Positions 48,001-50,350 of a stretch of 64,000 bases of DNA are shown in pieces. The DNA is from Amoebophrya sp. A120 (Eukaryota; Protista; Dinoflagellata). A program made the position numbers and the translations under genes. Below the pieces are notes generated by a model. It had not been told where the DNA came from and did no database searches. It saw only the letters and a list, made by a program, of their open reading frames with translations. The stretch is from the NCBI GenBank assembly GCA_905178155.1, contig CAJINV010000004.1:7818771-7882770 (forward strand). The letters run 5' to 3'. Within the stretch, counting starts at the first letter, position 1; each line of letters starts with the position of its first letter.

Positions 48001-50350
48001 ATGATGCAGCCACCGACAGAAGAGTTCCAGACCTCCGAGGATTGCGAGGCCATCGGGACTTTTGCAGAAATGGAGATGAAAAGCGACTTGTTAAGGGGAG
48101 TTTACGCATACGGGTGGGAAAGGCCATCCGCAATTCAGCAGCGAGCCATCGTGCCAATCTTCAAAGGTATAGAGAACCGAGTAGGTGGCACGTGACGATG
48201 ATTTTTGGCATGATGGTGCATAAAGAACTGCAGTTGTTCTTGTTGTATCAGTCGATAATCGATCAACGAGTATAACGAAGATTGGCGTAGTAGTAATCGT
48301 GCACCAGGTTATTGTCGAAATGGGAAAACTTCGAAAAGGAAAACTTGAATTTATTGCCGTGAGTTGATCGTTTATTCACATTAGCATTACATCTTTCACA
48401 ACAGGTCGCGACGTAATAGTGCAGTCCCAGTCCGTATCAAATGTAAAAATGTCTGGGTCTGGAAGATTGGGAGACTTGTCATGCATATTTTCATTTTGCA
48501 TGACCCATGACGCCTGTAATGCATGTCCTACCATCACAGATTTTTAGAACCCTTCCTGAAGCCTATTCCGCATGAGAAATGCCCTCTCCGCGTAGCACAA
48601 ACTGTGGTCCTCTTGCTGGTCATGCAATACAGATTTTTCTGGAATCCAAATGCAGCATCACAAGTTGCATTCTTCCAGACCCAGACATTTTTACATTTGA
48701 TAGTCCGGTACGGGAAAGACCGCGGTTTTTTGCTTGGGGGCACTCCAGGTTGTCGTGAAGAAAAACCGTTACCCGCAGGTAAGAAGTAGATCAATATGAT
48801 TTTGTCATCTTCAACATGCTGTTTCGTTTGTCAACATCTACTATTGCTGGAAGAGAAGTACTATTCTTGCAGCTGGGGAAGAAGTATCCTATGCAGTGAA
48901 GAATTTTTGTTGTTCTACTTCTAGGACGTCGCTACGAGTAAGAAAACGTTGAATTTGTCAACATCGCAATCAAAATGTTGAAAACAATCAGTAAAAAAAC
49001 GAGTATCACTTATCGCAGGCGCTTCTCCTCTCTCCCACACGCGAACTGGCAGAGCAGTCACAGAAGATTTGCGTTGCCCTCGGGGATTACATGAACATCT
49101 CGGTCCACTGCTGCATCGGTGGCAAGAGAATACCTGACGACATTCGCGCGCTGGAAGCGGGTTGCCATGTGGTTTCCGGGACGCCGGGGCGGGTGTTTCA
49201 CATGATCCAAGACCGGCACCTGAACACGAAGGGCATGAAAATGCTGATTCTTGACGAAGCAGATGAGCTGCTGAACAAGTAGATATTTGATAATTTTCAT
49301 GGTATTTATGCGAAAATTTCAAATCTTCATCGTGTCAGACTCATGGGCGATGTTGTAAGCAGCCCCATTATTTTTTATCTCTACCAGCCCTACTATTCTT
49401 CGCAGGACAAGGTCGTAAATTTATTAAAATTAGAGCTACCATCAATAATCCAAAAATCACCCAGGGGCTTTAAGGAGCAGATTCACGACATTTACCGGTT
49501 CCTGCCTCCGGGTGTGCAGGTCGTCTGCGTGTCCGCAACTCTGCCGCACGAAGTTTTGGAAATGACCCAGAAATTCATGAACAACCCGTTTCGCGTGCTG
49601 GTCAAGCGCGATGAGCTTTCGCTGGAGGGGATCAAGCAGTTTTTTGTCGCCGTGGAACGCGAGCAGTGGAAGTACGACACGCTCTGCGATTTGTATGACA
49701 CCCTGACGATAACGCAGGCGGTGATCTTCTGCAATACGCAACAGAAAGTGGACTGGCTCGCGGGGAAGATGAGGGAACAGAACTTCACGGTATTCTTAAC
49801 TTGTCATGCTAAAGAAGAATCACATGCAAAAATCTGTGTTGCACGATTATACCAAAAGCTGTGCACAACTTTCGACCAAGTTGAGAGGGAGTGTCTACTC
49901 ATGCAGGATAGGCACGATAATAGAGACCACCTCACAGAATCTGTCTTGCTAAATTCTGCATTTTAGACCTCAGGGGTCATGGAAAATCAGCATGACAAAT
50001 CACTGCAAACTAATATTCTTCAGGTTTCCTCGATGCACGCGGGTCTGGACCAGAAGGAGCGGGATTACATCATGAACCAATTCCGGTCCGGGCAATCCCG
50101 AGTCTTGATTGCCACGGACGTTTGGGGCCGTGGTCTGGACGTGCAGCAGGTGTCGCTGGTGATCTGCTACGACTTACCCACCAATCGTGAGCTGTACATC
50201 CACAGAATAGGCCGATCGGGGCGGTACGGCAGGAAGGGCGTCGCGATAAACTTCGTGAAAGAGGAGGACATCAGAATTCTTCGCGACATAGAGCAGTTTT
50301 ATTCGACGCAGATCGACGAGATGCCGATGAACGTTGCGGACCTGATTTAA
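48001..50350 (+). CDS. EIF4A3: eIF4A-III (exon junction complex DEAD-box helicase), 6 exons
   Basis: [110 protein letters not shown] introns 48167..48404, 48779..49018, 49279..49464, 49790..50023, plus one introner. Confidence 0.93.
48435..48702. mobile_element. Introner family A
   Basis: Family A TIRs; direct repeat GTCCG; inside the Walker A motif. Confidence 0.93.
49790..50023 (+). mobile_element. Family A introner relic now a canonical GT-AG intron
   Basis: Body matches the interior of 23783..24043; both TIRs eroded; begins G-TAT, ends CAG. Confidence 0.85.

Follow-up and report, generated by a model that had tools for sequence, protein, structure and literature searches.

Intron 5 of the eIF4A3 gene in the marine parasite Amoebophrya sp. 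A120 retains the interior of a family-A introner, lacks the outer terminal inverted repeats of that family, and is removed from transcripts as a GT-AG intron. Whichever of two routes was taken, it is very probably an introner-derived intron that has lost its outer repeats.

The six exons of the gene (Table 1), once spliced, give an uninterrupted frame of 392 codons. Human eIF4A3/DDX48 is a better match to exons 5 and 6 (E about 1e-58 and 1e-55) than is eIF4A1 (1e-43 and 1e-48). Joints in the contigs of two sequencing runs, X3 and X6, both RNA-like by a program's guess, define five introns, and both runs skip all five. Introns 1, 3, 4 and 5 (238, 240, 186 and 234 nt) are GT-AG. Intron 2 is excised precisely as the element plus 5 nt (skip 273 = 268 + 5), with no GT-AG register; registers one base apart give GT..TA and TC..AG. 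Compared with all 51 strict introner copies described below, introns 1, 3 and 4 displayed no detectable introner similarity (scores of 39, 32 and 37, against shuffle maxima of 39, 38 and 41).

The sequence-only reading had placed intron 5 at 49790..50023 as a GT-AG intron of eIF4A3, arguing that the conserved protein (NFT/VSSMH) sets the boundary and calling for a check of the junction in transcripts. These coordinates are exact. The intron starts with GTAT and ends with TTCAG, its flanking exons read QNFT and VSSM, and the two exons adjoin without a gap on human eIF4A3/DDX48 (residues 196-303, then 304-411). The corresponding joint (49788>50023, skip 234, GT..AG) was found in contigs of two of the four runs of one set, X3 at a depth of 187 and X6 at a depth of 85.5; the other two, X8 and X11, scarcely cover eIF4A3, and neither do X12 and X13. 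In a second set of four runs, which includes the DNA-like run X1, the joint was present in none. X1 crosses the intron without difference in two overlapping contigs (48740-49994 and 49972-51060), and a 291-nt X3 contig also spans the whole intron unchanged. Contig depth in X3 is 187 for the spliced and 3.4 for the unspliced form, which is a poor measure of splicing efficiency. The intron is in frame and its translation contains one stop codon. Its GT..AG ends and precise removal are those of a U2-type intron, and from these ends we assume that it is removed as a lariat by the spliceosome.

Table 1 Features of eIF4A3 intron 5, its host gene and its closest intact relative (positions in the window)
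Feature	Position	Strand	Basis or remark
eIF4A3 coding region, 6 exons	48001..50350	+	Joints in RNA-like runs, spliced frame
eIF4A3 intron 2, intact family-A introner	48435..48702	+	35-nt inverted repeats, 5-nt duplication
eIF4A3 exon 5, upstream flank of intron 5	49465..49789	+	RNA joints, protein match
eIF4A3 intron 5, GT..AG, 234 nt, phase 0, between T284 and V285	49790..50023	+	RNA joints
eIF4A3 exon 6, downstream flank, up to the stop codon	50024..50350	+	RNA joints, protein match
Interior of family-A introner	49798..49998	+	79% to 23819-24003, E 3e-42
Candidate left copy of 5-nt target-site duplication	49786..49790	+	Last G would be the donor G
7-nt direct repeat, first copy	49791..49797	+	Sole remnant at the site of the 5' outer inverted repeat
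7-nt direct repeat, second copy	50014..50020	+	
Surviving 10-bp inner inverted repeat, left arm	49801..49810	+	Paired in centroid fold
Surviving 10-bp inner inverted repeat, right arm	49989..49998	+	Paired in centroid fold
CTAAT, proposed branch-like word	50010..50014	+	Chance level
Pyrimidine run and CAG acceptor	50015..50023	+	One base short of the inner part of the family 3' inverted repeat
Closest intact relative of intron 5 in the window	23783..24043	+	Similarity search

The window, that is, the whole 64-kb stretch of DNA analysed, is crowded with short elements that have TAT at the start, ATA at the end, inverted repeats at their termini and a 5-nt direct repeat on each side. Sixty-one candidates were listed and 10 were dropped (nested, spanning two elements, or without a duplication), leaving 51 strict introner copies that make up 12.9 kb, or 20% of the window; the duplication is perfect in 39 of them. 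Excising each element together with 5 nt in silico yields reading frames of 1.8-3.0 kb. Fifteen further element-like segments were found by similarity, giving a total of 66. At least five end types occur, all with TAT..ATA ends and 5-nt duplications, and their approximate length classes are 145-155, 209-229, 246-279, 277-285 and 322-327 nt.

The alignment to 23783..24043 that the sequence-only reading had proposed establishes that the family-A interior is kept: it spans 201 columns, and its local score of 227 compares with a maximum of 39 in 300 shuffles. Apart from the first 8 nt and about the last 22-25 nt, all of intron 5 is introner sequence, and the length of the intron (234 nt) is near the family range (246-309 nt). 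In X1, the interior sequence is repetitive, with very high depth.

The ends of the intron are where it departs from the family. It has 8 nt at the 5' end where the 23783 copy has 36, and 25 nt at the 3' end compared to 40, and no inverted repeat of at least 12 nt was found at its ends. Among the 66 segments of the window it is the only one from which the two outer terminal inverted repeats are both missing; of the others, one (36117-36191) has just one repeat, and another is cut off by the edge of the window. The predicted number of end-to-end pairs is 10.8, as compared to 27-33 in five intact copies, and the intron folds no better than its shuffles (z -0.58). The claim that both repeats are gone applies to the outer ~30-36 nt only; further in, at 11 and 25 nt from the two ends, a perfect 10-bp inverted repeat is preserved. 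Of the A120-type end motif TAT-N7-AAA, the TAT is there and the remainder is absent. Amoebophrya introner elements (IEs) carry a direct repeat of 3-5 nt at the exon/intron borders, 5 nt in this window; intron 5 has no 5-nt duplication there, and its joint shares three letters, as a GT..AG intron ahead of a GTN codon would favour in any case. For the 7-nt direct repeat found at the two ends, the chance in shuffles is about 0.006, a value obtained post hoc. Regarding the features by which an IE is recognised, intron 5 is removed from the transcript (X3, X6) and consists of repeated sequence, like other introns of the genome, and it lacks an inverted repeat joining its 5' and 3' ends. It is a derivative of an Amoebophrya IE and no longer a member of that class.

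Two segments of the window may represent other stages of decay: 36117-36191, with one repeat arm only, and 35172-35385, with an interrupted 3' arm.

The signals at the two ends were compared with the family. The sequence-only reading had put the donor one base before TAT; this is possible for intron 5, and it is no family rule, as a G directly precedes TAT in 14 of the 51 elements. GTAT also opens intron 1 of eIF4A3, which is unrelated to intron 5. At the other end, 54 of 64 family-A ends have TTCCAG just within the 3' inverted repeat, and ATTCTTCCAG occurs in 10 of 64. The present acceptor equals TTCCAG less one C, and family contigs of X1 run on past 50001 with a similar word ending in TTCCAG. 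The acceptor CAG likely stems from the inner part of the family 3' inverted repeat, judging by this resemblance. The score of the 3' tail against the inner 3' repeat was reached by 18 of 400 shuffles, which is marginal, and that against the outer 3' repeat by 172 of 400, which is chance level. Read forwards, the 5' repeat fits the tail at least as well as the inner 3' repeat does (3 of 400 shuffles), and the history of the ends is therefore ambiguous. The branch-like CTAAT in the earlier description is not distinguishable from chance and is unsupported as a branch point: it is located 10 nt before the end of the intron, shuffling the last 38 nt produces a CTRAY in 23% of cases (P about 0.23), and none of the three other canonical introns of eIF4A3 has such a word.

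Intron 5 appears to have been in place for some time. Relative to the 23783 copy it has six private insertions (2, 2, 3, 3, 3 and 3 nt) and no deletion, while six intact kin have 0-1 insertion each. More broadly, 5-6 private small insertions in intron 5 compare with 0-1 in 24 of the 33 family-A sequences compared, and intron 5 ranks third or fourth by this count, after 16330 and 46763, whose repeats are also damaged. We read it as an aged introner copy, since small duplications are taken to accumulate after insertion; the correlation behind this reading, between small insertions and loss of repeat identity in 32 intact copies, is weak (rho -0.34, p 0.054), and the end of one copy, 41732, was mis-set. 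Substitutions between intron 5 and 23783 amount to 14%, within the 10-23% found among the six intact kin. Private insertions of 1-6 nt were also seen in 16330-16638 (11), 46763-47040 (7), 52965-53227 (5) and 28472-28741 (3). Many family-A insertions are tandem duplications, and there are almost no deletions; this apparent bias towards insertion might be used to date introners.

Elsewhere among eukaryotes, an intron at exactly this position of eIF4A3 was found in none of 79 loci from a metagenome scan (best 80 of 568). These loci have 75-86% protein identity, were chosen for an uninterrupted exon and include no close relative; 40 hold at least 3 kb and the rest may be transcripts. By pattern, 77 of the 79 read straight through, as does L062 with I for V, while L030 has an unrelated 170-nt GT-AG intron (2830-2999) lying 5 nt downstream, which is a different position. 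Since the loci are distant, are drawn from the best 80 of 568 and only 40 of them hold at least 3 kb, their lack of the intron is weak evidence on the age of the position. A scan of viral contigs found nothing. A close relative is present in a marine metagenome, X10, with reads that match 49622-49772 with 4 differences in 151 and 49391-49490 with 9 differences, corresponding to 97% in exon 5 and about 90% across the end of intron 4. These reads end at 49772, 18 nt short of the intron-5 junction; they indicate that public data contain sister strains.

We favour a route, to which we give about an even chance, in which a non-canonical introner was converted to GT-AG by deletion, since TAT follows the donor G and the acceptor reads like the inner inverted repeat. 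The introner would have inserted with a 5-nt duplication ending in G (CACGG), so that the 5' cut would read GT and the 3' cut CG, and the early copy would have relied on the hairpin route used by other non-canonical introners. For these five letters to be a copy of the duplication, the TAT at 49791 would have to be the original start of the element. A deletion that began right after the CAG within the 3' inverted repeat and ended with the final base of the duplication copy on the right would then have removed the outer 3' arm, exposed CAG as an acceptor and kept the reading frame, all in one step. The 5' arm, now without a partner, would have been lost afterwards, leaving an aged introner in place and spliced like an ordinary intron. 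Among the points against introner descent with loss of the outer repeats, by either route, are that intact copies differ from one another by as many substitutions as intron 5 does from 23783 (14%), and that there is one case in 66 segments. The sequence-only reading had presented the intron as caught converting, within a life cycle from hairpin-defined to ordinary intron. Descent from an introner, loss of the hairpin and GT-AG splicing all stand, while the prior non-canonical state and a cycle drawn from a single locus go further than the data; capture in the passage from non-canonical to canonical is plausible for this one locus.

In its general form, the argument is that the family-A TTCCAG may act as a latent acceptor, such that one deletion makes a GT-AG intron of a hairpin-spliced, non-canonical introner that landed after a G, that intron 5 would be such a switch of splicing route, and that many strain-specific canonical introns of Amoebophrya were converted likewise. 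We advance this wider proposal tentatively and hold it more doubtful than correct.

A possible but less probable history is that the intron was born canonical: a duplication GGTTT at insertion would give GT..AG at exactly this cut, and the hairpin, being unneeded, would have been deleted by drift. This would be a sub-case of introner descent with repeat loss, involving decay but no change of splice-site type. Of the five duplications that place GT at this cut, one gives AG at once, and a GT/GC..AG register exists on one strand in 4 of the 51 intact elements, two of them on the + strand, including 23783, where the duplication GGTTC yields the register 23779-24044 with the hairpin intact. Inverted and direct repeats are reported in 15% of canonical A120 introns in the available text of PMC7789003. 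Copies of this kind could lose their repeats by any deletion and should, by inference, be enriched among repeat-less copies. Against this, the 5' end reads GTAT, not GTTTTAT, and the tail matches the outer 3' repeat at chance level and yet resembles the inner one.

Both 23779-24044 and 36755-36988 are intact introners in which the duplication yields a GT..AG register on the + strand and the hairpin is kept; by sequence, they are candidates for the stage preceding repeat loss.

We consider it unlikely that an old canonical intron took up an introner, by insertion and deletions or by repair-mediated replacement of its interior, with the GT and AG being ancestral. According to the text of PMC7789003 at hand, 98.6% of the introns whose position A25 shares with A120 are canonical, and translation genes have fewer introners than expected; moreover, the head and tail of intron 5 are not firmly assignable to the element, and the 7-nt direct repeat could be a repair scar. 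However, only about 30 nt are not introner-like, compared to the 186-240 nt of the gene's other canonical introns, which would require the loss of the two outer repeats together with almost the entire host intron. The lack of an intron at the exact position in all 79 distant loci (best 80 of 568) also argues, weakly, against an old intron.

Far less probable still is a separate mobile sub-family without terminal repeats and with its own GT-AG ends. Introner families without such repeats do exist (the consulted part of PMC9860276 gives terminal inverted repeats in 72 of 177 families), and the substitution distance is low; however, no second copy with the ends of intron 5 was found in the window, related X1 contigs leave at 49798 and 50001 into ordinary inverted-repeat sequence, and most of them lack the small insertions. 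Finally, an assembly artefact (a collapsed repeat, as the very high X1 depth of the interior might suggest) or a wrong intron boundary is refuted by the X1 contigs crossing both ends, the X3 contig covering the whole intron and the agreement of the joint with the conserved protein.

Tens of thousands of Amoebophrya introns have no GT-AG ends, and the mechanism of their removal is described as unknown in the accessible portions of PMC7789003 and PMC11282704. The eIF4A3 gene pairs an intact non-canonical introner (intron 2) with a hairpin-less GT-AG relative (intron 5), and this pair offers a natural experiment on whether the hairpin takes the place of splice signals. If repeat-less copies were always GT-AG genome-wide, this would be population-level evidence that the hairpin is otherwise required. 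It would also provide a way for introns born from transposons to become impossible to tell apart from old ones. Taken by itself, the intron-5 locus is an example of an idea put forward earlier for fungi and euglenids.

In the openly accessible text searched, no paper describing a GT-AG introner copy without repeats was found for Amoebophrya; the parts available of the review PMC11282704, of PMC12130899 and of PMC9860276 contain no such case. The introners of A120 are described in the available text of Farhat et al. 2021 (PMC7789003) as starting with TAT, flanked by 5-bp direct repeats, about 240-250 nt long on average and non-canonically spliced. The window elements are like them in TAT start, inverted repeats, 5-nt direct repeats and length, whereas intron 5 shares the interior, with neither the outer repeats nor the 5-nt duplication left. 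The same text gives 24.8% canonical sites among strain-specific intron positions, describes canonical introns that keep their repeats rather than lose them, and, as far as it extends, proposes no conversion. Farhat et al. left the splicing mechanism open; they found no U1 snRNA, so even canonical splicing may be unusual in Amoebophrya.

By analogy, intron 5 appears to work like cases of decay or conversion in other lineages, with differences in each. In Symbiodinium, new transposon introns shift towards preferred donor sites over time, according to the portion seen of bioRxiv 10.1101/2020.10.14.339549; there, single-base donor changes (GA to GC) were inferred between species, not the loss of terminal repeats. 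Fungal introner-like elements are repeated, structured introns that are proposed to turn into regular spliceosomal introns as their sequence and length degenerate (in the text available of Collemare et al. 2013, PMC3609843). They are described as spliceosomal from the start and involve no change of splicing route, whereas the intact Amoebophrya family is mostly non-canonical and hairpin-ended. For one euglenid intron, the available part of Milanowski et al. 2016 (PMC4770533) proposes conversion from nonconventional to conventional. The euglenid intermediate keeps its structure, whereas intron 5 would be one step further along, with its structure lost and its source family still recognisable.
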